From IMG/VR virus record IMGVR_UViG_3300025678_000930: a DNA stretch of 64,000 nucleotides; one strand, written 5' to 3'. Every line of letters starts with the position of its first letter. The first letter of the stretch is position 1. Below, piece after piece: positions 22 to 63,920 of the stretch. Both the position numbers and the translations under genes were made by a program. This stretch comes from an uncultured virus (IMG/VR IMGVR_UViG_3300025678_000930). Its lineage: Duplodnaviria > Heunggongvirae > Uroviricota > Caudoviricetes. The notes under the pieces were generated by a model. It had not been told where the DNA came from, did no database searches, and worked only from the letters and a program-made list of their open reading frames with translations.

Positions 22-957
22 TTGAAAGCAGATGATACAGAGTATATTCGCACAGTCACCAAAAAGACCTTTGCCGCAGCTGTTGCCCGTATCTACGTTC
101 CAGGTATCAAGTTCGACTGTGTTCCTGTTCTAGATGGTGATCAAGGCATAGGCAAAAGTACAATAGTTAAAGACCTTGTAACTGCAGACTATTACTCTGA
201 AACTTTATCCCTTACCGATATGGACGATAAGTCTGGTGCTGAAAAGTTGCAGGGATTTTGGGTGGTTGAAATCGGAGAGCTTGCTGGTATGAAGAAAGCT
301 GATATTGAGAAGGTAAAAGCTTTTCTCTCAACATCCGATGACAAGTACCGTCCGTCTTATGGCAGGGTTGTAGAAAGCCATCCTAGACAGTGCATCATCA
401 TAGCAACGGTTAATGGTGAACGTGGATATCTGCGAGATATTACAGGTAACAGACGCTTTTGGATAATCAAGGTGCATCAGAAAAAACAGAAAAAGACCTG
501 GAATTTTACTGAAGAATATAGGCAGCAATTCTGGGCAGAGGCTAAAGAAATATGGAAGTCCGGCGAAAAGCTATATCTTGAGGGCGACATTTTAGATGAA
601 GCTGAAAAGGCCCAGAAAGGCGCCTTGGAGGCAGATGAGCGCGTTGGTATGGTTGAAGAATACCTGAATACCAGGCTGCCTGATGATTGGGATGACATGG
701 ATTTGTTCGCACGGCGAAATTACCTTTCTGGAAACGAGTTCGGGAGTCCGGTGCATACCGGTAGCCTTGTCCGTACCGAGGTGAGCAACGCTGAAATATG
801 GTGCGAATGCTTCGGCAAAAGTCTGCAGGAACTTAAACCTTCAGACAGCTATGGCATTGCAGCAATGATGTCGCAGATATCCGGATGGGAGAGAACTCAG
901 ACCATTAAGCGTCAGCCCATTTATGGCAGGCAACGACTCTACCAATACGGAGGATAA
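22..957 (+). CDS. VapE/VirE-family P-loop ATPase (phage primase-helicase), 3' part; start lies upstream of window
   Basis: Walker A GDQGIGKST, EIGEL, LRDITGNRRFW; paralog of 56710-59067. Confidence 0.85.
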   Translation: MKADDTEYIRTVTKKTFAAAVARIYVPGIKFDCVPVLDGDQGIGKSTIVKDLVTADYYSETLSLTDMDDKSGAEKLQGFWVVEIGELAGMKKADIEKVKAFLSTSDDKYRPSYGRVVESHPRQCIIIATVNGERGYLRDITGNRRFWIIKVHQKKQKKTWNFTEEYRQQFWAEAKEIWKSGEKLYLEGDILDEAEKAQKGALEADERVGMVEEYLNTRLPDDWDDMDLFARRNYLSGNEFGSPVHTGSLVRTEVSNAEIWCECFGKSLQELKPSDSYGIAAMMSQISGWERTQTIKRQPIYGRQRLYQYGG

Positions 958-1100
958 GAAACACAAGAATGCGTCACAACACAAGATTTTCCCTTATATT
1001 CAAAATGCTTTTTTATAAAGAGAGAAATAAAATCCTGTGAGCACACACGCGCGTAAGTAAATATAGGGAAAAGTTGTGCTACCTTGTGTACTTGTGTCAG
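958..1100. repeat. Short ACACAA(G)/(C)TTGTG repeats around an AT-rich core; candidate replication origin
   Basis: acacaag twice at about 961-985, inverted ttgtg copies at about 1074-1097; located right after the primase-helicase gene. Confidence 0.4.
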
Positions 1101-1113
1101 ATGGGAGGTAAAG

Positions 1114-1401
1114 ATGATTGAGAAATATATAGAGAAAAAACTGGTAGCCGCAGTTAAGAAAATGGGAGGAATTGCACCGAAGTTTGTAAGTCCTGGATTA
1201 AATGGTGTGCCAGACAGAATTGTGCTACTTCCTATGGGAAGAATCGCATTTGTTGAATTAAAAGCACCAGGCAAAATGATGCGTGCTCTGCAAGTAAGAC
1301 GAAAAAGGCAACTAGAGGAGTTAGGGTTTTTAGTTTACTGCATTGATAGTGTAGAGCAGATAGATGAAGTGTTAAAAGAGATGGGAGGTGATGCCAAATG
1401 A
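1114..1401 (+). CDS. VRR-NUC domain nuclease
   Basis: GVPDRIVL...FVELKAPG motif; SD ggaggt before ATG 1114. Confidence 0.85.
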   Translation: MIEKYIEKKLVAAVKKMGGIAPKFVSPGLNGVPDRIVLLPMGRIAFVELKAPGKMMRALQVRRKRQLEELGFLVYCIDSVEQIDEVLKEMGGDAK

Positions 1402-2767
1402 AGTTCATACCCCATGATTACCAGCTATATGCAAGTGCATATATAGAAAAGCACACAATATCAGCAATATTCTTGGATATGGGCTTAGGTTAGGAAAAAC
1501 AGTCCTGACCTTAACAGCCTTAAACAATCTCTTGTTTGATAGTTTTGAAATACACAAAATCCTAATAATTGCACCATTAAGAGTTGCCAGAGACACATGG
1601 CCTACTGAAATTGAAAAATGGGATCACCTAAAAGATTTAACATATTCGGTTGTCCTTGGAAGTGAAAAAGAAAGGAATGCAGCCTTAATGAAAAAAGCTG
1701 ATATCTATATTATAAATCGTGAAAATTTAAAATGGCTTGTGGAAGACAGCTCTTTCCCCTTTGATTTTGACACAATTGTTGTTGACGAGCTTTCATCTTT
1801 CAAGAATTATAAGTCTAAACGTTTCCGTTCTTTAATGAAAGTAAGACCAAAGATTAAAAGAATAGTTGGCTTAACAGGAACTCCTGCGAGTAACGGTTTA
1901 ATGGATTTATGGGCTGAATTTAGACTTTTGGACTTAGGAGAAAGGCTTGGAAGATTTATAGGAAAGTACAGAGAAGACTACTTTATACCGGATAAAAGAA
2001 ACCAGCAGATCATATTTTCATACAAGCCTAAGCCAGGAGCTGAAGATGCAATCTATAAAAAGATTTCAGATATAACAATTAGCATGAAAGGTTCTGATTA
2101 TCTCAAACTTCCTGAACTTGTTATTAATGAAGTAGAGGTTAATCTTTCTGAAAAGGAAATGAAAATTCTTGATGATATGAAAAAGGAATTAGTAACTATG
2201 GTAAAAGATGATGAAATCAGTGCAGCCAATGCTGCTGCCTTGTCAAATAAGCTTTTACAGATGGCAAATGGTGCAGTCTACGATGAGCTTGGTGAAGTAG
2301 TTAATATTCACCACCGTAAGCTTGATGCTTTAGAAGATTTAATCGAAGCTGCAAACGGCAAACCTGTTTTAATAGCTTACTGGTTTAAACATGATATGAA
2401 ACGAATCTCTGAAAGGTTTTCAGTTGAAACCTTGGACACCACTGACTCAATAAGAAGATGGAATAAGGGTGAAATTCCTGTAGCAATAATCCATCCCGCC
2501 TCTGCAGGTCATGGACTTAATCTACAAACCGGTGGCTCTACCCTTATATGGTTTGGTCTCACTTGGAGCCTTGAACTCTACCAACAAACTAATGCAAGAC
2601 TCTGGAGACAAGGTCAACAAAATTCAGTTGTTATTTACCACATAATTTCTAAAGACACAATTGACGAACGGGTAATGAAGGCGCTTAAAAATAAGGACAG
2701 TACACAAGCTGCCTTAATAGATGGAGTTAAAGCAAACCTAAAAACAGGAGGTAAAATTGATGAATGA
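1398..2767 (+). CDS. SNF2-family helicase interrupted by a 5-bp TTAGG duplication in Walker A (31-aa ORF 1398-1493, remainder in another frame)
   Basis: MKFIPHDYQ...FLDMGLG* then GKTV in the frame of 1532-2767; DELSS, GLTGTP, GHGLNLQ and QTNARLWRQGQ motifs intact. Confidence 0.85.
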
Positions 2768-2978
2768 TGTATACGAAAGACTAGCAAATGCAATCATTTT
2801 ACAAGCTGTAAAAGACTATCGAGATTCTTCAAAAAGACTTAAAAAATACCCAAATAAAGATACTGATTTATTTACTATTCAGGAAGTTGAGCAGTTCTTT
2901 CGTTCCGACTGGTACTCAACCCTAACTACAATAGACCCTGAGATTCTTATCCGAAAACTTAAAGAGGAGGTTTTATGA
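2760..2978 (+). CDS. Conserved phage hypothetical protein
   Basis: LANAIILQAVKDYR motif; paralog of 60920-61144. Confidence 0.7.
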   Translation: MNDVYERLANAIILQAVKDYRDSSKRLKKYPNKDTDLFTIQEVEQFFRSDWYSTLTTIDPEILIRKLKEEVL

Positions 2979-3415
2979 TGACAGCAAAAGAATATTTAAG
3001 CAAAGCCTATCGCCTTGATCAAAGAATAAATAGCAAATTGGAACAAGTAGCATCCCTAGAAAACATGGCTGTAAACTGTACTCATGCCATAACTGGGATG
3101 CCCCGTAACCCCAACCCTTCTGTATCTCAGATGGAAGATGCTGTCTGTAAGATTATTGATATAAAAAACAATTTGAAAGATGATCTTGCAAAACTTCTGA
3201 ATTACAAGGTAAGTATTCTTGAGATAATCCAGAGTGTGAATAATCTTGAATACAGATTAATTCTTGAAAAGCGCTACCTCTGTTATCAACCTTGGGAGGA
3301 TATCGCCTACGACTTAAATTATTCTGTAAGCTGGGTGCTTAAGCTTCACCGTAAAGCTCTCAGAGCTGTAGATTCTATTATGGCTGGAAAGGAGAATAAA
3401 AATGGGATGGTATGA
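2975..3415 (+). CDS. DUF1492/RinA-ArpU-like transcriptional activator
   Basis: AKEYLSKAYRLDQRI N-terminus, C-terminal HTH (RYL..WEDIA.DLNYS); upstream of packaging genes. Confidence 0.7.
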   Translation: MMTAKEYLSKAYRLDQRINSKLEQVASLENMAVNCTHAITGMPRNPNPSVSQMEDAVCKIIDIKNNLKDDLAKLLNYKVSILEIIQSVNNLEYRLILEKRYLCYQPWEDIAYDLNYSVSWVLKLHRKALRAVDSIMAGKENKNGMV

Positions 3416-4034
3416 AGCTTTAGAAGATGGAATAACCATCGGTAAGGATAAAAATAATACAAATTGTTATTATCCACCCTGCCACATATGCGGCACAGCA
3501 GTTTATAGCTGGTCCTACACTCGTGGTACTCAGTACATCTGCAAAGACTGTAGGGCTGAGCTTGTAAGGCAGACACGGGAAGAAGGAAATTTAATCAGCA
3601 CTGATAAGAAGAAAAAGAAGCTTGAAAATGCTATAAAGCGAATCTCTAAGGTCACAAACATTTCAGCCTATGAGAATGCAATAAGACTTGTAAAGAAGAA
3701 CCTGAATAAGCCAGGATGGTATCAGAGTACAGAAGAAATTATGGTTGCCCTTGAACTAGTCCGTCGTGGAGTAAAGGCACATCATCAGGTTAAAATCTTT
3801 GATTACAGTGTTGACTTCATTCTCCCTGACATGAAGGTTGCTCTTGAGATTGACGGCAAGATCTTCCATGGCAAAGACAGACTAGAGTATCAAACCAATA
3901 GAGATGAGGCCATTGCTAATAAACTTGGAGATGGCTGGGAGATAATTAGAATCACTACTGACAATATTAATATGAATGTCACCAAATTGATTACAGGAAT
4001 CAATGCCGTTCTTAAAAGAAGAAAACCTTCATAG
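3402..4034 (+). CDS. Zn-finger plus DUF559/Vsr-like PD-(D/E)XK endonuclease
   Basis: CHIC...CKDC; YSVDFILPDMKVALEIDGKIFH...RD. Confidence 0.65.
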   Translation: MGWYEALEDGITIGKDKNNTNCYYPPCHICGTAVYSWSYTRGTQYICKDCRAELVRQTREEGNLISTDKKKKKLENAIKRISKVTNISAYENAIRLVKKNLNKPGWYQSTEEIMVALELVRRGVKAHHQVKIFDYSVDFILPDMKVALEIDGKIFHGKDRLEYQTNRDEAIANKLGDGWEIIRITTDNINMNVTKLITGINAVLKRRKPS

Positions 4035-5203: not shown

Positions 5204-6382
5204 ATGATTACTTATAAAACAGCAGAAAGTGTATGTGCTGGACATCCGGATAAGCTTTGTGACCTTATTGCTGATAATATTCTGGATGCTTGTATGCGTA
5301 AAGATAAAGCTTCCCGTGTGGCCTGTGAGGTTATGGCTACTAAAGGCAAAATTATCGTGGCGGGCGAAATCACCTGCAACGGTAAAGTAGACATCCGTTT
5401 CATCGTGAAAAATGTACTTCGTGAGGTTGGATACAATCCATGGAAGTTCACAGTGTTTGTTTTTGTACATCATCAAAGTGCAGACATTGCGGCGGGTGTA
5501 GAGACTGCACTTGAAGTGCGAAATGGTATTACTGACCCGTATGGTTCTATAGGAGCCGGGGACCAGGGTACGGTTTACGGTTATGCAACAAACGAAACCA
5601 GTAAGAACCTTCCCCTCCCACTTGTGCTTTCTCATCGTATCGTAAAGCGTATTGATGATTGCCGTAAAGGAAAACTTATCAAAGGAATTTTACCAGATGG
5701 TAAAGCACAGGTAACAGTGGAATATGAGAACGGTAAGCCAAGACGTGTAAAAACGATTGTAGTTTCAGTCCAGCATGATAAAGACAAAACCCAGGAAGAA
5801 CTGAGTTCGGATATCCGAAATAATGTACTTTGGCAGTGCTTTGAGGATTTTCCATTTGATAATGGTACCGAAATTCTTATTAACCCCTCCGGAAGATTTG
5901 TCGAGGGTGGTCCTGCTGCCGACACAGGATTGACTGGCAGAAAAATCATGGTCGATACCTATGGTGGCCTTGCATCCCACGGCGGAGGTGCCCTTTGTGG
6001 CAAGGACCCGACTAAGGTTGACCGAAGTGGTGCCTACATGGCACGGTACATTGCGAAGAATATTGTTTGGAGCGGTCTTGCAGAAAAATGTGAGGTCGCT
6101 CTTTCTTATGCCATAGGAAAGGCAAATCCTGTGGCTGTTGATGTGACTTCCTTTGGTACAGGTAAGATCACCGATGATCAGCTTTCCAATATTGTGCAGG
6201 AAGTGTTTAACCTCAGACCTGCTGCAATCATTGAAAAACTACACTTAAGAAATACCATCTATTCCGATACAGCGGTTTACGGGCATTTTAATTCCAGTCT
6301 GTTCCCCTGGGAGAATGTCAATATGTACACAAATTTGAGAAAGGCGGCTGAATTATATGCAGATAGAAAAATTGAAAACTGA
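5204..6382 (+). CDS. metK: S-adenosylmethionine synthetase (phage-borne)
   Basis: ESVCAGHPDK, GAGDQG, GRKIMVDTYGG, GKDPTKVDRSG motifs. Confidence 0.95.
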   Translation: MITYKTAESVCAGHPDKLCDLIADNILDACMRKDKASRVACEVMATKGKIIVAGEITCNGKVDIRFIVKNVLREVGYNPWKFTVFVFVHHQSADIAAGVETALEVRNGITDPYGSIGAGDQGTVYGYATNETSKNLPLPLVLSHRIVKRIDDCRKGKLIKGILPDGKAQVTVEYENGKPRRVKTIVVSVQHDKDKTQEELSSDIRNNVLWQCFEDFPFDNGTEILINPSGRFVEGGPAADTGLTGRKIMVDTYGGLASHGGGALCGKDPTKVDRSGAYMARYIAKNIVWSGLAEKCEVALSYAIGKANPVAVDVTSFGTGKITDDQLSNIVQEVFNLRPAAIIEKLHLRNTIYSDTAVYGHFNSSLFPWENVNMYTNLRKAAELYADRKIEN

Positions 6383-7592
6383 GTTGTTGATTCCAGCCGA
6401 TTATAATCCTCGTAAAGACTTGAAACCAGGTGACCCGGAATACGAAAAGCTAAAACGCTCCATCGAACAATTCGGTTATGTTGAACCCGTTATATGGAAT
6501 AAAACCACATCTCATGTTGTCGGTGGACATCAGCGTTTGAAGGTGCTACTTGATATGGGTATCACTGAAGTTGAGTGTGTGGTTATCGAGATGAACGAGG
6601 AAAAAGAAAAGGCACTCAATATCGCTCTCAATAAAATAAGCGGTGACTGGGATAAAGACAAATTGATGCTTTTAATTGCTGATCTGCAAGGAGCAGACTT
6701 TGACGTATCCCTCACCGGATTTGAGCCTGCTGAACTGGATGCATTGTTTAAGGATTCACTTAAGGATGGCATTCATGAAGATGACTTCGATGTAGATGCA
6801 GAACTGCAAAAGCCCGCACTCACCAAGCAGGGTGATGTTTGGATGCTTGGGCAGCACAGGCTCGTCTGCGGTGATTCCACTAAGGCTGACACTTTCAATG
6901 TTCTGATGGATGGCAAACTTGCAAATCTAGTGATAACTGACCCTCCGTACAATGTTAACTATGAAGGTTCAGCGGGTAAAATTAAGAATGACAATATGGG
7001 AAATGAAGCGTTCTACGGATTTCTGCTTGATGCGTTTAAGAACACCGAAGTGGCAATGGCGAAGGATGCTTCTATTTATGTATTTCATGCAGATACTGAA
7101 GGTTTGAATTTCAGAAAGGCTTTCGCGGAATCTGGTTTTTACCTCTCCGGTACTTGCATTTGGAAAAAGCAGTCGCTTGTTCTTGGCCGCTCCCCTTATC
7201 AATGGCAGCATGAGCCGGTTCTTTTCGGTTGGAAGAAATCCGGCAAGCACAACTGGTATGCCGATAGAAAACAGACTACTATATGGGAATTTGAAAAGCC
7301 AAAGAAAAATGCTGACCATCCTACAATGAAACCGGTAGCATTGGTAGCCTATCCAATTCTGAATAGCAGTTTGTCTAATTGTATTGTACTTGATCCATTC
7401 GGCGGAAGTGGTTCTACCCTTATCGCCTGTGAGCAAACGGACAGGATATGCTATACCATCGAACTGGATGAAAAGTATTGTGATGTCATAGTAAAGAGAT
7501 ATATTGAGCAAGTTGGAGTCGAAGACAGTGTGTTTTGCATTAGAGATAATAAGAAGCTTTCCTATAAAGAACTATTAGAGATACAGTCATGA
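6357..7592 (+). CDS. ParB-like N-domain plus N4/N6 DNA methyltransferase
   Basis: YNPRK...GGHQR ParB domain; DPPY, HPTMKP, LDPFGGSGST. Confidence 0.9.
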   Translation: MQIEKLKTELLIPADYNPRKDLKPGDPEYEKLKRSIEQFGYVEPVIWNKTTSHVVGGHQRLKVLLDMGITEVECVVIEMNEEKEKALNIALNKISGDWDKDKLMLLIADLQGADFDVSLTGFEPAELDALFKDSLKDGIHEDDFDVDAELQKPALTKQGDVWMLGQHRLVCGDSTKADTFNVLMDGKLANLVITDPPYNVNYEGSAGKIKNDNMGNEAFYGFLLDAFKNTEVAMAKDASIYVFHADTEGLNFRKAFAESGFYLSGTCIWKKQSLVLGRSPYQWQHEPVLFGWKKSGKHNWYADRKQTTIWEFEKPKKNADHPTMKPVALVAYPILNSSLSNCIVLDPFGGSGSTLIACEQTDRICYTIELDEKYCDVIVKRYIEQVGVEDSVFCIRDNKKLSYKELLEIQS

Positions 7593-8233
7593 TAAAAAGT
7601 ATTTCATATTCTCAGGAAGAATTAATTAAAAACATACTGGAACTTCACTCAAAAAGCGGCAGAATAGATTGCGACCCAACCTATTCTAAAGGATATTTTT
7701 ATAAAGATACAGGGATAGAAAAGCCGGGATACAAATTTGATATAAATCCACAAATAGAGGGAGTTGTAGAGGCTAATGCGGAAAAACTCCCTCTTTCTGA
7801 TTGCAGTTTGAATACCATCATATTTGATCCTCCGTTTCTTGCTACTACCGGAAGGAGCTTAAATAAGGTTGATAATAGCAATGTAATCAATAAGCGCTTT
7901 GGAGTATATGATAGTGAATTGGCTTTATTTAGGTTTTACAGAAATGCGATGGAGGAATTTTATAGGATTTTAACACCGGAAGGCATATTGATTTTCAAAT
8001 GCCAAGATAAAGTGAGCAGTGGTAAGCAGTATTTTAGCCACTGCTTTATTTATAATACAGCAATTGAATTGGGTTTCTACCCTATTGATTTTTTTATTTT
8101 ACTATCAAAGAACAGAATCACAGCAAAGTGGCAGCAGAATCAGAAGCATGCCCGTAAATATCATTCATACTTTTGGGTGCTTAAAAAATGTAATAACAAA
8201 ACACTATACAGCGAGGTGATTAAAAATGAGTAA
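7589..8233 (+). CDS. Small amino (N6A/N4C) DNA methyltransferase-like protein
   Basis: IFDPPF motif IV; EFYRIL..EGILIFK. Confidence 0.65.
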   Translation: MIKSISYSQEELIKNILELHSKSGRIDCDPTYSKGYFYKDTGIEKPGYKFDINPQIEGVVEANAEKLPLSDCSLNTIIFDPPFLATTGRSLNKVDNSNVINKRFGVYDSELALFRFYRNAMEEFYRILTPEGILIFKCQDKVSSGKQYFSHCFIYNTAIELGFYPIDFFILLSKNRITAKWQQNQKHARKYHSYFWVLKKCNNKTLYSEVIKNE

Positions 8234-10088
8234 ACTGACCCTCGGCTCGCTTTTCGATGGCAGTGGCGGTTTTCCCTTAGGCGGTTTGCTCTGTGGCATC
8301 GAGCCGTTATGGGCATCAGAAATTGAGCCGTTTCCTTTACGGGTTACAACAAAAAGGCTGCCATTTATGAAACACTACGGTGATGTCTCTTGCCTGGATG
8401 GCAGTAAGATAGAACCGGTTGATATAATTACATTTGGCTCACCTTGTCAGGATATGTCTGTGGCGGGTAAGCGTGATGGCTTGGACGGAGAGCGTTCAAG
8501 TCTTTTTTATGATGCCGTTCGAATTGTAAAAGAAATGAGGTGTGCAACAGATGGTAAATATCCAAGATACATCGTCTGGGAAAACGTGCCGGGTGCTTTC
8601 TCCTCAAACAAAGGAGAGGACTTCAGATGTGTCCTTGAAAGCATCTGTCACATCAAAGATGAAACCTTATCAGTTCCTAAAGCTGATAAATGGAGGCAAG
8701 CAGGAAATGTCATGGGAGATGATTTCTCCATTGCCTGGCGAGTACTTGACGCTCAATACTGGGGAGTCCCCCAACGAAGAAAACGCATCTTCCTTGTCGC
8801 AGATTTTGCAGGTGGGAGTGCCGGAGAAATACTATTTAAGTCAGAAGGCTTGTCTGGGTATTCTAAGGAGAGCTTCCGCTCGTGGCAAGGAACTGCCGGT
8901 TGTTTTGAAAACGGCATTACAGAAACAGGCACAAGCAGTGTGATCTTAAATGACCAAGGTGGTAATCGGATGGATATCACGGAAGATGTCACTTGCACTC
9001 TCCGAGCTGAGGCTCATCACCCACCTTGTGTTATGGATGCGGCGGTATTTGATAATCACGGAAGAGATACTCGCTTTACGGGGCCGATTGATGTTGCACC
9101 GACAATATCAGCCACTTATGGAACAGGCGGTAATAATCAGCCTTTTGTGGTTGGTGATACACCGAAAACCCTCAAAATCCGTTGTGGCTGTGAGGGTGGT
9201 GGTAAAGGTGCACTTATCCAGAATAATAAATCGGCAACACTATCCTGCAATAATGACCAGACGTTATTTGTCCCGAAAGCTTATGGTATCTGCTCTAAAG
9301 ACAGCAATGCCATGAAATCATCTAATCCCAACAGCGGAGTATATGAGGCCGATACTTCACGAACCATTGATGGAAATGGAGGAAATCCTTCCTGCAATCA
9401 AGGTGGTATTGCTATTGTAGAAAGTTATGCTCTGCAAGGCTCCATGATTGGAAGAAAAGATAAGAACGGTCCACAGGGTGACGGGGTTAATGAAAATATA
9501 AGTTTTACATTAAATACTGTAGATAAGCACGCTGTTGTTTTCGCTATTGATAGAGAATCTTTCAACTGTGGTCAAAATTATGCCAGAAATCTTGGGATTA
9601 CAGAAGACGGAATATCATCGACACTAAATGCACAGGGACCAAGTGCTGTGGCAACTCCTATCTACTCTTCAAGCAAGGCATCATTTTTTACTGCCGCTGA
9701 AGAAGAACTAGCAAATACGCTGGTTGCTACTGACTACAAAGACCCTCCGCTTATTAATGATACAGACGGCACCCTATACACGGTTAGAAGATTAACTCCT
9801 ACCGAATGTGCAAGACTTCAAGGTTTCCCGGATTGGTGGTGCAGTAATCTTGCAACAGAAAATCCAACAATGGATGACTTACGCACTTGGTATAACATAT
9901 TTGAAACTCACCGTAAGGTTACGGGAAGTTCAACTAAGCCAAAAACCTTAAAGCAGATATCTAAGTGGCTTAAAGACCCACATTCTGATTCTGCAGAATA
10001 TAAGATGTGGGGCAATGGAGTGGCACTTCCGTGTGTATATTTTGTTTTGTCGGGCATTGTGTTTTTCATACAAGATACCGCCGAATAA
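8226..10088 (+). CDS. DNA (cytosine-5) methyltransferase with long variable region
   Basis: SLFDGSGG, GSPCQ, WENVPG, QRRKR, RRLTPTECARLQGFPD, GNGV motifs. Confidence 0.9.
   Translation: MSKLTLGSLFDGSGGFPLGGLLCGIEPLWASEIEPFPLRVTTKRLPFMKHYGDVSCLDGSKIEPVDIITFGSPCQDMSVAGKRDGLDGERSSLFYDAVRIVKEMRCATDGKYPRYIVWENVPGAFSSNKGEDFRCVLESICHIKDETLSVPKADKWRQAGNVMGDDFSIAWRVLDAQYWGVPQRRKRIFLVADFAGGSAGEILFKSEGLSGYSKESFRSWQGTAGCFENGITETGTSSVILNDQGGNRMDITEDVTCTLRAEAHHPPCVMDAAVFDNHGRDTRFTGPIDVAPTISATYGTGGNNQPFVVGDTPKTLKIRCGCEGGGKGALIQNNKSATLSCNNDQTLFVPKAYGICSKDSNAMKSSNPNSGVYEADTSRTIDGNGGNPSCNQGGIAIVESYALQGSMIGRKDKNGPQGDGVNENISFTLNTVDKHAVVFAIDRESFNCGQNYARNLGITEDGISSTLNAQGPSAVATPIYSSSKASFFTAAEEELANTLVATDYKDPPLINDTDGTLYTVRRLTPTECARLQGFPDWWCSNLATENPTMDDLRTWYNIFETHRKVTGSSTKPKTLKQISKWLKDPHSDSAEYKMWGNGVALPCVYFVLSGIVFFIQDTAE
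8551..8943 (+). CDS. Nested +1-frame protein within the C5-MTase (beta-subunit-like)
   Basis: SD GAGGTG at 8537-8542, 8 nt before ATG 8551; SLSQIL...PEKYYLS.KAC.GILRRA resembles the C-terminal part of MTase 49549-51210. Confidence 0.65.
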   Translation: MVNIQDTSSGKTCRVLSPQTKERTSDVSLKASVTSKMKPYQFLKLINGGKQEMSWEMISPLPGEYLTLNTGESPNEENASSLSQILQVGVPEKYYLSQKACLGILRRASARGKELPVVLKTALQKQAQAV

Positions 10089-39001: not shown

Positions 39002-40570
39002 ATGATGAAAAAGATAACAAAAATAAATGAATTGGAGAGACCGCTATTATCTAAAACGAAGCTTCGAGTTGCAGCCTATGCTAGAGTTTCAACAGATAGT
39101 GATGAACAGCTTGTAAGCCTTAAAGCACAGCGAGAGCACTATGAAACTTATATTAAATCCAACTCAGAATGGGAGTTTGCAGGTCTCTATTATGACGAAG
39201 GTATATCAGGAACCAAAAAGGAAAAACGACCAGAACTTCTTCGCATGATACGTGATTGTGAGAATGGGAAGATAGATTTTATTGTTACTAAATCAATTAG
39301 TCGGTTTGCCCGTAACACAATGGACTGTCTAGAATTGGTAAGAAGTTTGATGGATATCGGTGTCTATATTTATTTTGAGAAAGAAAATTTAAATACAGGT
39401 GACATGGAGAGCGAACTTATGCTTTCTATCCTCTCGGGTTTTGCAGAAGAAGAGTCTGCGTCAATATCACAAAATACCTCATGGTCAATCAATAAGAAAT
39501 TTAAAAATGGTAGTTACATTATTGGCAGCCCTCCTTATGGTTATGCCAATGTAAATGGTGAGATGGTTATTGTTCCAGAGGAAGCTGAAATAATAAAACG
39601 CATTTTTGCAGAATGCCTTTCAGGTAAAGGTGGAAGTATCATAGCAAAAGGCCTGAACAGGGATAAGATTCCTGCAAGAAGAGGCAACCATTGGAGTTCA
39701 GGTACGATAATTGAAATGCTCCGGAACGAAAAATACAAAGGTGATGTCCTTTTCCAGAAGACATATACGGACAGCAACTTCAACCGTCATATTAACAATG
39801 GCGAGAAGGATCAGTTTTACTGTAAGAATCACCACGAACCTATTATCAGCAGAGAAGTATTCTCTAAGGCTCAAAAGCTGATAGCAGAAAGAGCAAAGAA
39901 TCGTAATAAATCCATTGCTAAGAATACTTATCAAAACAGATATGTATTGAGTGGAAGAATAATCTGTGGAGAGTGTGGTTCCAAGTTTAGAAGAAAAACA
40001 AACTATTCTGTTGGCAGAAGTTATATAGCCTGGAGTTGCATAGGTCACATTGAAGACAAGAACAGTTGCTCCATGTTATTTTTGCGTGATGGAGAGATAA
40101 AAGCAACATTCGCAACGATGATGAATAAGCTAGCATTCAGCAGAAAGATAATACTGGAGCCACTTTACGATTCAATAAACAAAATTGACGAAGAATGCGA
40201 CCTTGAAAGAATTGATGCCATAGATAAGCGCATGGAACAATTAACCGAAGAACGCAATACTCTTATTGGTCTTATGACAAAAGGGTTTCTCGAACCAGCA
40301 CTTTTTAACAAGGAACGAAATGTCCTAGATATAGAGATAAAAAATCTTACTGCTGAGAAGACAAACTTAGTAATGTCATTTACCAATGGCACTTCACAGG
40401 CGGACGAGGTAAAGGCACTTCTTGATTATGTGTCGAAAGAAAAGTTTGATGGTAATTATACAGATGAGGCATTTGAAAAGTTTGTTGAAAACATAACTGT
40501 AGATTCAAGGGATGAACTAATATTTAAAATGAAGTGTGGTCTTTCCCTTAAAGAAAAGGTGGTGAGATAA
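39002..40570 (+). CDS. Large serine recombinase 1
   Basis: AYARVST catalytic Ser, KSISRFARN, Zn-ribbon CGECG. Confidence 0.92.
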   Translation: MMKKITKINELERPLLSKTKLRVAAYARVSTDSDEQLVSLKAQREHYETYIKSNSEWEFAGLYYDEGISGTKKEKRPELLRMIRDCENGKIDFIVTKSISRFARNTMDCLELVRSLMDIGVYIYFEKENLNTGDMESELMLSILSGFAEEESASISQNTSWSINKKFKNGSYIIGSPPYGYANVNGEMVIVPEEAEIIKRIFAECLSGKGGSIIAKGLNRDKIPARRGNHWSSGTIIEMLRNEKYKGDVLFQKTYTDSNFNRHINNGEKDQFYCKNHHEPIISREVFSKAQKLIAERAKNRNKSIAKNTYQNRYVLSGRIICGECGSKFRRKTNYSVGRSYIAWSCIGHIEDKNSCSMLFLRDGEIKATFATMMNKLAFSRKIILEPLYDSINKIDEECDLERIDAIDKRMEQLTEERNTLIGLMTKGFLEPALFNKERNVLDIEIKNLTAEKTNLVMSFTNGTSQADEVKALLDYVSKEKFDGNYTDEAFEKFVENITVDSRDELIFKMKCGLSLKEKVVR

Positions 40571-40988: not shown

Positions 40989-42551
40989 GTGACTGAAAAA
41001 AGTATAACTGTAATTCCAGCACGAAAAAGATTTGGAAACACAGTTGCAAAAGAAAAAATAAAGAAACTGCGTGTCGCTGCCTATTGCCGTGTTTCTACAG
41101 AAACAGAAGAGCAGAATTCAAGCTATGAAGTGCAAGTAGATCATTACACGGAGTTTATAAAGAAAAATACTGAATGGGAGTTTGCAGGCATATTTGCAGA
41201 TGACGGCATATCTGGCACTAATACCAAAAAACGTGAAGAGTTCAACCGTATGATAGACGAGTGCATGGAGGGTAAAATAGATTTAGTTATTACCAAGTCC
41301 ATTAGTCGATTTGCCCGTAATACTCTGGATTGCCTAAAGTACATTAGACAACTTAAGGAGAAGAACATATCGGTATTTTTCGAGAAGGAAAACATCAATA
41401 CAATGGATGCCAAGGGTGAAGTACTGCTCACTATTATGGCATCTCTAGCACAGCAAGAAAGTCAGAGCCTTTCGCAGAACGTTAAACTGGGACTTCAATA
41501 CCGATATCAACAAGGAAAGGTACAGGTCAACCACAAGCGTTTCATGGGGTACACAAAAGACGAAGACGGCAACTTAATAATAGTTCCTGGAGAGGCAAAA
41601 ATCATTAAACGAATTTATAGAGAATACCTTGAGGGCAAAAGCCTGGCGGGTATTGGTAGGGATCTTGAAAAGGATGGTATTTTAACAGCCGCCGGAAAAC
41701 CAAAGTGGAGACCAGAAACCTTAAAGAAAATTCTTTCGAATGAGAAATACATCGGTGATGCACTTTTGCAAAAGACCACTACAGTTGATTTTCTTACAAA
41801 GAAGAGAGTCAAGAATGAAGGTCATCTCCCACAGTATTATGTTGAAAATAGCCATGAGGCTATCATTCCGAAAGAACTCTTTTTACAAGCACAGGAAGAA
41901 CTTCATCGCCGGAATAACATTTACACAGGCACAGACAAGAATAAAAGAATTTACAGCAGTAAATACGCTCTGAGTACCATAACCTTCTGTGGTGATTGCG
42001 GTGATATTTATAGACGAACATATTGGAATGTTCACGGTAGAAAAGAAATTGTTTGGCGATGTGTAACAAGAATCGAGCAAGGCCCCGAAATATGCAAGAG
42101 CCGAACAGTAAAGGAAGGCGATTTATATGATGCTGTTATGACTGCCATTAATAGATTACTTGCTGGCGGTGATAACATGATAAAAACACTGGAAGAAAAC
42201 ATCCATGCGGTAATTGGTGACACCACAGAGTATCAAATTTCAGAGATTAACACCTTGCTTGAAGAAAAGCAGAAGGAACTAATCAGCCTTGCTAATAAAG
42301 GAAAAGACTATGAACACTTGGCAGATGAGATTGATAACCTGCGTGAAAAACGTCAGACCCTTCTTGTGGAAGATGCATCATTAAGTGGTGAGAATGAGAG
42401 GATTAACGAGCTGATTGAATTTATCCGCAACAATAAATACCGAACCCAAAGATATGATGATGTACTTGTAAGAAAGTTAATACAGAATGTTACTGTTTAC
42501 GATGACCATTTTGTAGTATGCTTTAAATCTGGCATTGAAGTTGAAGTATGA
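40989..42551 (+). CDS. Large serine recombinase 2
   Basis: [21 protein letters not shown]. Confidence 0.92.
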
Positions 42552-49548: not shown

Positions 49549-51210
49549 TTGATGGATATAAAAAGAGTTGGAAGTATCTGTTCTGGTATTGAGGCAGCGT
49601 CAGTTGCTTGGGAACCATTGGGACTTAGTTTTGACTGGTTTTCTGAAATAGCAGACTTCCCTTCAAAGGTGTTGAAAAGAAAATATCCAGGTATCCCTAA
49701 TTTAGGAGATATGAATGATATACCTGAGAAAATTACACAGGGTGAAATAACAGCACCTGATATGATTTGTGGTGGAACGCCTTGTCAGGCATTCTCATTA
49801 GCAGGATGGAAAAACGGACTCAATGATGACCGAGGAAATTTAACATTAAGATTTGTGGATATCATTGAGGCTAATGATGAAGTTAGGTTAACTTCTGGCA
49901 AGGATAGAACCATAGTTTTTTGGGAGAATGTTGAAGGGGTATTAAAGGATAAGACTAACGCATTTGGCTGCCTATTATCTTCATTAGCTGGATTAACTGA
50001 TGTAATTAGTGGGAAAAAATGGCCTAATTCAGGAGTAATTCATGGACCCAAAAGAAATGTTGCTTGGAGAGTTTTAGATGCAAAATTCTTTGGGTTGCCA
50101 CAACAAAGAAAAAGGCTTTATGTCATGGCAGGCGGAACTGACTTTTACCCTGAAAATGTTTTATTTGAAAAACATGAACATGATTTGGCTGAGTACCCAT
50201 CATCACAGTTAGCATTTGAAAAAGATGGACATAAATTTGAAGTTTTTAGAGAATATACAGACTGCTTGTATTCTGCCTATGGAACGAAGTGGAATGGAAA
50301 TGCTGCGGCATACAATGGTTCATTGTTTGTTGTTCAGGATGATAGAATCAGAAGACTATCCCCATTAGAAACGGAACGACTAATGGGATTCCCGGATAAT
50401 TACACAGATATAAAGGGTGCTAGGAAAACAAATAGATACCAAGCAACGGGAAACTCATGGGCAGTACCAGTTGTTGAGTGGATTGGGAAACGATTATTAG
50501 ATTACAATCAAGATGAATATAATTTGGCGGAAAACTCACTTAGCATAATGAAGAGACGTCATGATATTGAAGGTGAAGGATTTTATCTTGATTTAGGAAA
50601 AGATATTGTTACCATTAATCAAGAATTATCAATAAACTGTACATCGGTCCCAGAGGTGAGCCATTTTTCGGATATGAAATCCATTGTATCGCCTGATGCT
50701 CCAGAAGATATATATATTTCTCCTGTAGGATGCTATGGTATTGTGAGAAGAAAGCAAGAAAGAAACTTAAATATAAATCCTCGTTTGGAAGAGGTTCTAC
50801 TTTTAATTTCTTCACAGATGACACCAGAGGAAATTGAGAAACGTTCAAGAGTACAAAAAAGAGGAAGATTTAGTGATGTAATAGACGAGCTAGAGGATGG
50901 TTCTGCTGATGATATAGAAGACGAAAATAATGAAGAAAAAACTGTCGAAAGTGGTCAATTGAATATTTTTGACATAGAAATGCAAAAGAAAATTAACTGG
51001 GAATTACTATCTTACGGATTTGTAGTAAAAGATAGGAAGGTGTATGCTTTACAAAAAGGAAATGATGAAATTCGATTGTGGGTTTCTAAAGAAACAGAAC
51101 TAAAATTACCAAACGAAAGTGTGGAGAAAGTCATTACTGAAAATGAAGGTGATATTTATCATGGAACATATGATGAATTAATGAAAATATTAATGAGTCT
51201 TATGTTGTAA
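49549..51210 (+). CDS. DNA (cytosine-5) methyltransferase with C-terminal extension
   Basis: SICSGIEA, GGTPCQ, WENVEG, QQRKR, RRLSP.E.ERLMGFP, GNSWAVPV. Confidence 0.9.
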   Translation: MMDIKRVGSICSGIEAASVAWEPLGLSFDWFSEIADFPSKVLKRKYPGIPNLGDMNDIPEKITQGEITAPDMICGGTPCQAFSLAGWKNGLNDDRGNLTLRFVDIIEANDEVRLTSGKDRTIVFWENVEGVLKDKTNAFGCLLSSLAGLTDVISGKKWPNSGVIHGPKRNVAWRVLDAKFFGLPQQRKRLYVMAGGTDFYPENVLFEKHEHDLAEYPSSQLAFEKDGHKFEVFREYTDCLYSAYGTKWNGNAAAYNGSLFVVQDDRIRRLSPLETERLMGFPDNYTDIKGARKTNRYQATGNSWAVPVVEWIGKRLLDYNQDEYNLAENSLSIMKRRHDIEGEGFYLDLGKDIVTINQELSINCTSVPEVSHFSDMKSIVSPDAPEDIYISPVGCYGIVRRKQERNLNINPRLEEVLLLISSQMTPEEIEKRSRVQKRGRFSDVIDELEDGSADDIEDENNEEKTVESGQLNIFDIEMQKKINWELLSYGFVVKDRKVYALQKGNDEIRLWVSKETELKLPNESVEKVITENEGDIYHGTYDELMKILMSLML

Positions 51211-59067: not shown

Positions 59068-59281
59068 AGGTAGTTCCTTGTTCTTTGGTTGTTTCCTATA
59101 GTTGTTTTCTTAAAACCGTAGCAAATACCGATACTTCGGCTTAACGGGAATAACAGGAACAAGACTTTTACTACTTAGTAATAAATAAAAAAGTAATAGT
59201 AGAAATGTCGTGTGTGCGCGCATATAGGAAAAATCGTTCAAAGTTGTGCCTGTTGTTCCCCAATAAGAAATGGAGGACATT

Positions 59282-59569
59282 ATGCAAGAAAAATATATAG
59301 AGCAAAAATTGATAGCAGCAGTTAAAAACATGGGAGGCATTGCCCCGAAGTTTGTAAGTCCTGGATTTAATGGTATGCCAGACCGCCTTGTGCTGCTTCC
59401 TATGGGCAGAATCGCATTTATTGAATTAAAAGCACCGGGTAAAATGATGCGTCCCCTGCAAGTAAGGCGAAAAAGACAACTGGAAGCGTTAGGTTTTTTA
59501 GTTTACTGCATTGATAGTGTAGAGCAGATTGATGAAGTGTTACAAGAGATGGGAGGTGATGCCGAATGA
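59282..59569 (+). CDS. VRR-NUC domain nuclease
   Basis: Near-identical to 1114-1401. Confidence 0.85.
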   Translation: MQEKYIEQKLIAAVKNMGGIAPKFVSPGFNGMPDRLVLLPMGRIAFIELKAPGKMMRPLQVRRKRQLEALGFLVYCIDSVEQIDEVLQEMGGDAE

Positions 59570-60923
59570 AGTTCATACCACATGATTATCAGCAGTATGC
59601 AATTGATTTTATCGAGAGCAAGGCAATATCTGCAATATTCCTTGATATGGGCTTAGGTTAGGAAAAACTGCAATTACTCTCACTGCATTGTTTGACCTTT
59701 GTCTTGATAAATTTGAAATAAGAAAAGTCTTGATTATAGCCCCATTAAGAGTTGCATCTCAAACATGGCCTGCAGAAATAAAAAAGTGGGATCACCTCAA
59801 AGGCTTATCATACTCTGTGGCAGTAGGAACGGAAAAAGACAGAATCAATGCCCTTATGAAAAGAGCCACCATTTATATCATCAACCGTGAAAATGTAGAT
59901 TGGCTTGTAAACAAGAGCGGAATCCCCTTTGACTTCGATATGATTGTCATTGATGAGTTATCCTCTTTTAAGTCCTATGGTGCAAAGCGGTTTAAAAGCC
60001 TTCTGAAAGTAAGACCATCTGTAAGAAGGATTGTAGGTCTTACGGGAACACCTTCAAGTAACGGACTTATGGATTTATGGGCAGAGTTTCGTGTCCTTGA
60101 TTTAGGTCAGAGGCTTGGAAGGTACATAACCCACTACCGAAGTGCCTACTTTGTGCCGGATAAGCGTAATGCTGAAATTATCTTTTCATATAAGCCACTG
60201 CCGGGTGCTGAAGAAAGGATATACAGCCAAATCTCTGATATTACGATTTCCATGAAGTCTGCAGATTACCTCAAAATGCCTGAATGCGTCATAAATGAAG
60301 TGCCTGTGTATCTGAGTGAAAAGGAATGGATCATTTATTCTGATTTCCGAGATGAAATGGTTGCAAATTTAGGTGATGAGGAAATTGATGCAGTAAATGC
60401 GGCAGTTCTTTCTGGCAAACTCCTGCAGATGGCCAATGGTGCTGTTTATGATGATAAAAATAAAGCTCATCTTATTCATGATAGAAAACTTGATGCCTTG
60501 GAGGACTTGATTGAAGGTGCAAATGGGAAACCTGTGCTGGTTGCCTACTGGTATAAGCATGACCTGGAGCGTATCCAGAAGAGATTTTCTGCTAGGCAGA
60601 TAAAGACATCGAAAGATATTGAAGATTGGAATAACGGCAATATCCCAATAGCCGCTATTCATCCGGCAAGTGCAGGACACGGACTTAATCTTCAAAGTGG
60701 AGGTTCAACCCTTATATGGTTTGGACTTACCTGGTCTTTGGAGTTGTATCAGCAAACTAATGCCCGTCTTTATAGGCAAGGTCAAAATGAAACGGTTGTG
60801 ATACACCACATTATTGCTAAAGACACCATAGATGAAGATGTTATGACTGCACTTACAAGAAAAGAAAAAACACAAACCTCTTTAATTGATGCTGTAAAAG
60901 CAAAATTGGAGGTGGTGCGATGA
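59566..60923 (+). CDS. SNF2-family helicase interrupted by the same TTAGG duplication (31-aa ORF 59566-59661, remainder in another frame)
   Basis: FLDMGLG* then GKTA in the frame of 59688-60923; other helicase motifs intact. Confidence 0.85.
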
Positions 60924-62741: not shown

Positions 62742-63920
62742 ATGATTACTTATAAAACAGCTGAAAGTGTCTGTGCCGGACATCCCGATAAGCTTTGCGA
62801 CCTCATTGCTGACAATATTCTAGATGCTTGTATGCATAAGGATAAAGCTTCACGTGTGGCCTGCGAGGTCATGGCTACCAAAGGCAAGATTATCGTAGCG
62901 GGCGAAATCACCTGCAGCGGTAAAGTGGACATCCGTTTCATCGTAAAAAATGTACTTCGAGAGGTCGGATACAATCCGTGGAAATTCACAGTATTTGTAT
63001 TCGTGCACCATCAAAGCGCAGACATTGAAGCGGGTGTTAATAATGCACTTGAAGCAAGAAATGGTATCAATAATCCATATGGTTCTGTCGGCGCCGGAGA
63101 CCAAGGTACGGTTTACGGTTATGCAAGCAATGAAACCAGTAAGAACCTGCCCCTGCCACTGGTACTTTCCCATCGCATCGTAAAGCGCATTGATGACTGC
63201 CGCAAAGGAAAACTCATCAAAGGAATTCTGCCGGACGGAAAAGCACAGGTCACGGTAGAATATGAGGATGGTAAACCAAAGCGTGTGAAAACCATTGTAG
63301 TTTCAGTCCAGCATGATAAGGACAAAACCCAGGAAGAATTGAAGTCGGATATCCTTAGTAATGTACTTTGGCAGTGCTTTGAGGATTTTCCATTTGATGA
63401 TGATACTGAAATCCTTATTAATCCCTCAGGCAGATTTGTCGAAGGTGGTCCCGCTGCCGACACAGGCTTGACCGGCAGAAAAATCATGGTCGATACCTAC
63501 GGTGGCCTTGCATCCCACGGGGGAGGTGCCCTTTGCGGTAAGGACCCGACCAAGGTTGACCGAAGTGGTGCATATATGGCACGCTACATTGCAAAGAACA
63601 TTATTTGGAGCGGTCTTGCAGAGGAATGTGAGGTCGCTCTTTCTTATGCCATAGGAAAGGCAAATCCTGTGGCGGTTGATGTGACTTCCTTTGGTACAAG
63701 CAAACTCGCAGATGATCAGCTTTCCTATATTGTGCAGGAAGTATTTAACCTCCGACCTGCTGCAATCATCGAAAAATTACACTTAAGAAATGTCATCTAT
63801 TCCGATACGTCGGTTTACGGACATTTTAATTCAAGTCTGTTCCCCTGGGAGAATGTCAATATGTACACGAATTTAAGAAAGGCGGCTGAAATATATGCAG
63901 ATAGAAAAACTGAAAACTGA
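62742..63920 (+). CDS. metK: S-adenosylmethionine synthetase (phage-borne)
   Basis: Same motifs as 5204-6382. Confidence 0.95.
   Translation: MITYKTAESVCAGHPDKLCDLIADNILDACMHKDKASRVACEVMATKGKIIVAGEITCSGKVDIRFIVKNVLREVGYNPWKFTVFVFVHHQSADIEAGVNNALEARNGINNPYGSVGAGDQGTVYGYASNETSKNLPLPLVLSHRIVKRIDDCRKGKLIKGILPDGKAQVTVEYEDGKPKRVKTIVVSVQHDKDKTQEELKSDILSNVLWQCFEDFPFDDDTEILINPSGRFVEGGPAADTGLTGRKIMVDTYGGLASHGGGALCGKDPTKVDRSGAYMARYIAKNIIWSGLAEECEVALSYAIGKANPVAVDVTSFGTSKLADDQLSYIVQEVFNLRPAAIIEKLHLRNVIYSDTSVYGHFNSSLFPWENVNMYTNLRKAAEIYADRKTEN

Follow-up and report, generated by a model that had tools for sequence, protein, structure and literature searches.

The 64,000-nucleotide stretch of DNA analysed here (IMG/VR virus record IMGVR_UViG_3300025678_000930, from an uncultured member of the Caudoviricetes; hereafter "the window") encodes two C5 cytosine DNA methyltransferases (MTases), A and B. 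The gene for MTase A contains a second open reading frame (ORF) in its +1 frame, at 8551–8943, which the evolutionary pattern of its codons very strongly suggests is a real, separate protein-coding gene under selection, and whose C-terminal module recurs in MTase B as part of the main chain. On balance we favour the interpretation that MTase A is an enzyme with a small, separately translated accessory chain, of which MTase B may be the fused form. The features on which this rests are as follows:

8226..10088, + strand: C5 cytosine DNA methyltransferase A, 620 amino acids, frame 0 (PF00145, E 7.9e-42; TIGR00675, E 7.3e-36)
8253, 8442, 8580 and 8772, + strand: starts of motifs I, IV (PCQ), VI (ENV) and VIII (QRRKR) of MTase A
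9786 and 10011, + strand: starts of the C-half motifs IX (RRLTP...) and X (GNGV) of MTase A
8536..8542, + strand: upstream +1-frame TGA (8536–8538) overlapping a Shine-Dalgarno sequence, GAGGTG (8537–8542), by reading of the sequence
8551..8943, + strand: nested gene, +1 frame, 130 codons plus stop, wholly inside MTase A
8707..8940, + strand: nested residues 53–130, homologous to the fused domain of B-type MTases (hhalign)
49549..51210, + strand: C5 cytosine DNA methyltransferase B, 553 amino acids, with its complete core at residues 1–325 (PF00145, E 1.8e-39)
50587..50829, + strand: residues 347–427 of MTase B, the in-frame domain homologous to the nested protein (BLASTP, profile search, hhalign)

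Selection on the +1 frame of MTase A

Both enzymes are recognised as C5-MTases by profile (PF00145 scores of 144.3 bits for A and 136.5 bits for B, with a curated cut-off of 22) and by their motifs I, IV (PCQ), VI (ENV), VIII (QxRxR), IX and X; in A, RRLTPTECARLQGFPD lies at residue 521 and GNGV at residue 596. The +1-frame ORF occupies 8542..8943 and would encode 133 amino acids counted from a GTG or 130 from the ATG at 8551, from which point it overprints codons 109–239 of MTase A. The original prediction, made from the window's sequence, had described a 130-codon +1 ORF within 8226–10088 with GAGGTG 8 nt before the ATG at 8551, and its coordinates and description were correct. Across the site where the upstream TGA and the Shine-Dalgarno sequence overlap, frame 0 of MTase A reads Glu-Met-Arg (GAA ATG AGG), and the +1-frame peptide of the nested gene includes the ...LSQILQVGVPEK... 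region.

Homologues were fetched using only the non-overlapping C-terminal half of MTase A, so that their sampling is independent of the nested frame. This gave 80 loci in addition to the window, of which 65 had a full-length gene in one frame; the other 16, the frame-changing L016 and L096 among them, were left out because the contig cut the gene short or the gene was in two pieces. Removal at ≥95% nucleotide identity then left 51 sequences with 64–95% amino acid identity to A. The prediction depended on the +1 frame being kept open in homologues, and it is open in all 51, for 131–157 codons and with the same boundaries: the frame is closed upstream at codon 103 (105 or 106 in three of them) and downstream at codons 237–261, while the rest of each gene contains 11–33 +1 stops. 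The ATG is kept in every one of the 51 and is preceded by GAAATGAGG. At the Shine-Dalgarno site the frame-0 GAA and ATG codons are invariant, and the Arg codon is AGG in 50 of the 51, whereas AGG makes up 12.6% of the Arg codons outside the overlap.

Synonymous-codon identity (use of the same codon where the amino acid is the same) was calculated for the 1129 sequence pairs that have less than 75% amino acid identity. Outside the overlap it is 0.42 (codons 1–103) and 0.41 (codons 239–620), and inside it is 0.68 (codons 104–238), 0.85 in codons 200–238 and 0.94 in codons 211–225; suppressed synonymous variation over the overlap, which had been proposed as a check on the prediction, is therefore present. 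In codons 198–238 the frame-0 identity falls to 0.31–0.48 and the synonymous identity is 0.84–0.94. The entropies of the three codon positions of the MTase frame are 0.51/0.27/1.38 upstream and 0.60/0.48/1.50 downstream, and 0.96/0.42/0.41 within codons 198–238, which is the periodicity of the +1 frame. By this pattern the +1 frame is the dominant selected frame from about codon 198 of MTase A (position 8818, just after motif VIII), and both frames are constrained in the part of the overlap that lies 5' of that codon.

Several properties of these data count against so firm a conclusion. The 51 homologues are mutually related and thus not independent. Openness alone is weak evidence, because synonymous shuffling that keeps the MTase protein often leaves the +1 stretch open (median P 0.066, 0.001–0.56 per sequence, with 2.3 +1 stops expected) and because unconserved +1 open runs of 36–211 codons occur elsewhere in the same genes. 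In a second set of homologues, biased in that its query contained the nested region, at least 127 codons are open in 70 of the 74 complete loci; the exceptions have an early stop in the nested frame (L005, L036 and L056) or a frame change (L007).

A 121-codon +1 ORF at 8950–9315 (+ strand), which begins two codons past the nested stop, was considered as a second nested gene and rejected, as it shows no synonymous suppression and comparable +1 runs vary in place and length among homologues; this open run is probably an effect of composition.

Nested residues 1–80, which overlie motifs VI–VIII of frame 0, are predicted to be disordered. An AlphaFold2 (AF2) model of the nested protein alone has helices at residues 83–86, 98–111 and 117–129, the last two of which are confident (8842–8937). 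The nested family extends from just 5' of motif VI to about 40 codons beyond motif VIII and has its own start and a signature, LSxIL...(K/R)Y(Y/F)LS...GILRRA...RGKxLP at the end, that is present in the window's nested ORF. The product would thus consist of a Ser/Lys-rich, disordered N-terminal half, whose sequence would be largely set by motifs VI–VIII of the other frame, and a C-terminal half that would form a small folded module made of a short helix, the KYYLS turn and two helices.

Homology to MTase B and three arrangements of the module

The likeness that had been noticed by eye between the end of the nested protein and the segment that follows motif X in MTase B is genuine. In BLASTP the two proteins score 33.1 bits with 15 of 46 residues identical (E 2e-6 for the pair), and tblastn of the nested protein against all six frames of the window finds, besides itself, only B (50626–50763) at E<1 (E 1e-4; the next match has E 5.0). 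Likewise, a profile of the 51 nested homologues searched against the 700 six-frame ORFs of the window that have at least 40 codons for amino acids finds only itself and B (E 5.3e-5; next 0.8). The comparison of profiles that had been suggested for the nested and fused domains is significant: hhalign of the nested family (54 sequences) with the B family (36 sequences) gives a probability of 94.3% and E 1e-7 over 81 columns, aligning nested residues 53–130 with B residues 347–427. Judged by these alignments, the last ~80 residues of the nested protein are homologous to the post-motif-X domain of B. In the AF2 model of B the blocks in residues 320–430 have predicted local distance difference test (pLDDT) values of 73–92, with helices at 376–379, 392–405 and 411–421, and in the two independently made models the helices of the nested protein and of B fall at matching aligned positions.

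The domain of B cannot be a side effect of an overlap, because it is encoded in one frame only; the other two + strand frames there are full of stops. That it might be a relic of a former overlap was considered and rejected on the same ground, and the N-terminal half of A has no match there. The C-terminal part of B is shared by 512 proteins (E≤1e-3), and PF00145 is found in all of the best 120 of the 512. Since B model residues 1–328 align with the whole of M.HhaI (Z 16.4, 249 residues, root mean square deviation 3.8), the extra domain is an addition to a complete MTase core. A fold search with the whole B model was uninformative on the extra domain, its matches being taken up by the MTase core (residues 1–325). 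MTase B also has a further ~80-amino-acid domain at residues 475–553 (50971–51207), after the peptide QLNIF, which is confidently predicted to consist of strands and two helices; it is common to B's closest relatives, and most members of the B family do not have it.

Twelve loci were found with B as the query. Eleven are B-type, and all of these have the fused domain and 4–11 +1 stops in the region where A has its nested gene; the other, the distant relative L177, is without the fused domain, and its +1 frame is open over 129 codons. In the loci examined, nested and fused forms thus exclude or replace each other.

A phmmer search of 1.84 billion representative proteins with the 130-amino-acid nested protein gave 3475 matches at E≤1e-3 and 1141 at E≤1e-10. 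Among the best 150 representatives the module is a small protein by itself in 93 and lies in frame ahead of a half-enzyme with the target recognition domain (TRD) and motifs IX and X in 44, six of which continue into a motif I; seven others have an MTase N-terminal part before the module and six have other layouts. Eight of the 74 loci have this split form too, their module preceding the TRD/IX/X half in frame. In loci such as L024, L027, L035, L039, L042 and L073 the ORF for the N-terminal half stops just past the overlap and the +1 ORF continues; read in this way, they are split enzymes with the module at the start of the second chain.

Taken together, the nested, fused and split arrangements argue that the module belongs to the enzyme. 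In this MTase lineage it would be an accessory with three modes of attachment: as a free small chain, in the window's MTase A and most relatives; as the N-terminus of the TRD/IX/X chain, in the split relatives; and as a domain fused after motif X, in MTase B.

Two further architectures were seen among the relatives. L010, L011, L013, L015, L018, L020, L022, L024 and others are circularly permuted C5-MTases: the gene begins past motif I, a motif I segment comes in frame behind motif X, and the nested +1 ORF is retained, with 143–205 codons in those examined. In the split-type P0148 an HNH/AP2-like endonuclease segment lies in frame between motifs IX and X.

MTase A as a proposed two-chain enzyme, and the alternatives

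In the interpretation that we favour, the nested gene would be translated from its own Shine-Dalgarno sequence and ATG, and the free chain would dock on MTase A, making A a two-chain enzyme. We infer that the chain would also be necessary for full function, in DNA engagement or recruitment. The original proposal of a two-chain enzyme in A and a fused one in B gains support from a selected ORF with its own start signals, from the homology to B and from the mutual exclusion of the two forms.

The structure check on this complex that had been called for gave a weaker result. MTase A and nested residues 45–130, each supplied with its own alignment, gave a predicted complex with a score of 0.56 (0.64, 0.56 and 0.52 in the individual runs), and the best of three controls scored 0.00; the pLDDT of the partner was at least 59, and at least 46% of the contacts agreed between runs. 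In calibration 116 of 157 solved complexes passed, as did 2 of 215 mismatches, and the passes that scored 0.60 or less comprised only 18 of those 157 solved complexes and both of the passing mismatches. The complex of A with the nested module is thus a weak pass, and no interface was returned with it; it lends weak support to binding of the module to MTase A.

That weakness is one of several points that speak against a required subunit. MTase A carries all ten C5-MTase motifs on one chain, and the core of B matches the whole of M.HhaI even with the extra domain left aside, so there is no obvious sign that the module is an essential piece of the core. In addition, the confident part of the AF2 fold of the nested protein alone is limited to residues 90–130, with a mean pLDDT of 61.9.

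The known system closest in layout is M.EcoHK31I, described in the accessible text of PMC2836561 as a heterodimeric C5-MTase whose beta chain has its whole coding region inside the alpha gene in another frame, and in which association of the chains is needed for activity. MTase A resembles it in having a second ORF (8551–8943) wholly inside the MTase ORF (8226–10088) in another frame, here +1. Lee, Kam and Shaw reportedly found in 1995 that the beta chain of M.EcoHK31I supplies motif IX and that its alpha chain has no motif IX. In contrast to this reported division of labour, motif IX is present on MTase A itself and absent from the nested protein, which has no PF00145 match at E≤1 and carries instead the small module that B has after motif X. 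The earlier statement that both main ORFs keep a motif-IX-like segment was right, and because A keeps motif IX, the nested system is, as far as the motifs tell, not a strict equivalent of M.EcoHK31I.

C5-MTases of the M.AquI type are split into an alpha chain with motifs I–VIII and a beta chain with motifs IX–X. The relatives of A that are split after motif VIII (L016, L024, L027, L035, L039, L042 and L073; P0001, P0004 and P0016) are like M.AquI in this respect; their second chain starts with the nested module, and the overlap between their two genes spans about 130 codons. MTase A of the window is unlike M.AquI in being a single chain with all motifs, from which only the ~130-amino-acid module is separate. 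In E. coli Dcm the only match of the nested profile is at residues 282–339, right after motif VIII and ending ...AKYILTP, which is where the split relatives have their module; with an hhalign probability of 11.6% (E 0.0026, for a single comparison) the match falls short of significance. The hypothesis that the module may be the canonical post-motif-VIII segment was set against Dcm and 80 Dcm-family loci, and the one match lay where expected but was weak.

A gene of this nested family is annotated in one GenBank record, that of Streptococcus phage MM1 (AJ302074.2): its ORF14 (141 amino acids, "putative methyltransferase") lies in the +1 frame inside ORF13, a "putative DNA methylase". Homology of ORF14 to the window's nested protein is seen with BLASTP (E 2e-7) and with the profile (E 1.2e-13 in a search of three sequences). 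ORF14, known from annotation alone, differs in that it ends soon past its ...YFLS turn and does not have most of the two-helix end. Actinophage methylases have out-of-frame HNH insertions (PMC11855218); these are different from the nested MTase module, and the accessible text of that paper does not mention the nested gene.

Three other explanations have to be weighed against a two-chain MTase A. The nested protein may be real and yet not be an MTase subunit, its job being to regulate MTase expression, to bind DNA or a phage or host factor, or to act only as a clamp tether in relatives. We consider this unlikely, though the least improbable of the three: searches of Pfam, NCBIfam and PDB sequences with the nested protein or its profile gave no match, the core of B needs no extra domain to be complete, the predicted complex is weak, and many relatives have a QxxLF-like motif at a free end (below). 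The module has however been seen only in or on C5-MTase genes across everything examined; it shares a chain with MTase parts in two different arrangements, and the exclusion between nested and fused forms also speaks for an MTase role.

The +1 ORF might instead be reached by programmed frameshifting, with no initiation of its own, either by ribosomes that translate the MTase and shift +1 (giving a truncated chain with motifs I–VIII followed by the module) or by ribosomes that start at 8551 and shift back (giving the module followed by TRD/IX/X). Relatives with the module in frame with the C-terminal half do exist, 7 of the 150 representatives join an MTase N-terminal part to nested sequence, and nucleotide conservation is very high at the 3' end of the overlap. 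Those seven proteins nonetheless have no motifs VI–VIII and may be sequencing or assembly errors. The invariant ATG and the SD-like GAGG, kept by means of a rare Arg codon, argue for independent initiation, a +1 stop lies directly upstream in all 51 homologues, and no slippery site was seen on reading the sequence, in which no systematic search for one was made. We therefore regard frameshifting as improbable.

Finally, that the ORF is an untranslated by-product of MTase protein constraints and codon usage, similar to B by chance, is very improbable indeed, for although the frame-0 sequence alone predicts so few +1 stops, other long +1 runs occur, and the peptides that frame 0 encodes at motif VI and after motif VIII dictate parts of the +1 peptide (by reading of the sequence), such constraints do not account for the switch to +1 periodicity with low frame-0 and high synonymous identity in codons 198–238, the boundaries, ATG and Shine-Dalgarno sequence fixed in 51 of 51 homologues, or the homology to a domain that B encodes in a single frame.

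Distribution, a possible sliding-clamp link and genomic context

A tblastn search found the nested module in 145 phage records, among them those of phages that infect Vibrio, Mycobacterium, Escherichia (P1), Pseudomonas and Burkholderia, and the hosts of phages that carry the nested gene span Bacillota, Proteobacteria and Actinobacteria. When six distant phages were opened, the module lay in the +1 frame of the annotated MTase coding sequence in five of five that have one (P1 dmt, Omega gp127, Vibrio 1.033.O, TC7 and Bcep22), and in the sixth, MA12, it is present in a region without annotation. The nested copy in dmt of coliphage P1 is unannotated; in P1 record OP279344.1 (L160) the dmt gene at 898–3939 encodes 1013 amino acids, its translation reads as having an intein-like insertion of ~330 amino acids just before the catalytic Cys of PCQ, and the 164-codon nested +1 ORF is at 2222–2716.

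The nested protein is missing from almost all annotations because standard gene callers permit one gene per stretch of DNA. Most of the stand-alone versions in the protein collection are on very short contigs, and these versions are proteins without names; the window's exact nested protein is absent from ~15 billion predicted proteins. Its sole match in PHROGs is phrog_16143 ("DNA methyltransferase", E 1e-7), and its matches in the ESM Atlas are to "hypothetical protein" clusters. In the literature searched, coverage of which was partial, no description of the nested gene family or of its fused form was found.

The module may in addition have a link to the sliding clamp. The bacterial clamp-binding consensus is given in the accessible text of PMC12309361 as QL[S/D]LF, or more generally QxxLF, and a peptide resembling it is present in MTase B:

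50956..50970, + strand: QLNIF, residues 470–474 of MTase B, a QxxLF-like motif of the sliding-clamp-binding type (from the sequence)

In B this peptide is internal, following an acidic linker and preceding a further folded tail of ~80 amino acids, and it is not overlapped by another frame. Past the module, B-family proteins have the basic sequence RG[RK]FS, then an acidic linker, then a Q[LMIV]x[LIM][FL] peptide, which occurs downstream of RG[RK]FS in 80 of 116 B-family proteins vs. 15 of 5800 shuffled tails; in many examples among the matches listed it is 3–6 residues from the C-terminus. In the nested family the peptide lies 4–17 residues from the N-terminus (45 in one case) in 38 of 125 representatives, for example as ...IQLSLFGKT..., and it occurs once in the other 27,148 residues of the same 125 proteins. 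MM1 ORF14 also has ...QMTLFE at its N-terminus. The nested-gene peptide is partly shaped by the hydrophobic strand that precedes motif VI in the other frame, as seen by reading the codons. The window's own nested protein does not have the clamp motif, as the aligned site reads MVNIQDTSSGKT, and Q..[LIM][FL] is found at the N-terminus in none of the 51 members of its clade.

We tentatively suggest, as a possibility for the family that we think less probable than the two-chain reading of A, that the module and a free-end QxxLF peptide form a putative sliding-clamp tether for phage cytosine methyltransferases. In B the tether would be built in, as module, acidic linker and QLNIF; in many relatives of A the nested protein would consist of an N-terminal QLSLF-type peptide, a disordered linker and an MTase-docking module; and the nested protein of the window would be a derivative that lost the peptide. 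No report of a clamp-binding motif linked to a phage DNA methyltransferase was found in the literature searched, again with partial coverage. As a separate observation, Pseudomonas phage TC7 (L163) has a "putative DNA polymerase III beta subunit" gene, at 1–606, two genes upstream of its C5-MTase with the nested module.

The window is a virus record with its phage genes on the + strand. The order begins with small terminase, S-adenosylmethionine (SAM) synthetase, a ParB-type N6 MTase, a small MTase-like ORF, C5-MTase A, large terminase, portal and capsid; DUF2800, single-stranded DNA-binding protein, PolA, two serine recombinases and C5-MTase B lie farther on, and past B come VapE and SNF2, with another small terminase and another SAM synthetase behind them. 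The two SAM synthetase genes, at 5204–6382 and 62742–63920 (+ strand), contain all three MetK Pfam domains and each lies just after a small-terminase gene; the first is directly upstream of the three-MTase cluster and could possibly supply methyl donor. The small ORF between the ParB-type N6 MTase and MTase A (7589–8233, + strand, 214 amino acids) has no Pfam match at E≤1e-5 and has a DPPF motif, which is typical of amino-MTases. The two large serine recombinase genes are in tandem (39002–40570 and 40989–42551, + strand), between the PolA module and the MTase B region. The ends of the window are related (1001–2500 and 59169–60668 are 62–74% identical at an offset of 58,168 nt, with VapE, SNF2, TerS and MetK modules), and the record seems to hold two related phage modules and not one wrapped genome.

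The presence of nested and fused forms of one module in a single window is a natural experiment on the module's function, and selection on the nested gene is as clear as on the enzyme around it. The gene is among the best-supported long same-strand overlapping genes in bacterial viruses and should be useful for studies of how one DNA encodes two proteins. Cytosine methyltransferases of phages and mobile elements are main tools of escape from restriction and are also used as reagents, and an overlooked subunit or clamp tether, if real, would revise the view of their activity, specificity and timing; an overlooked subunit would likewise account for cases in which cloning the annotated ORF alone fails. 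In eukaryotes maintenance methylation is coupled to the clamp, and if the tether exists, it would be a bacterial counterpart of that system, in which phage DNA methylation would be coupled to the replication fork so that new DNA would be protected at once from host restriction.

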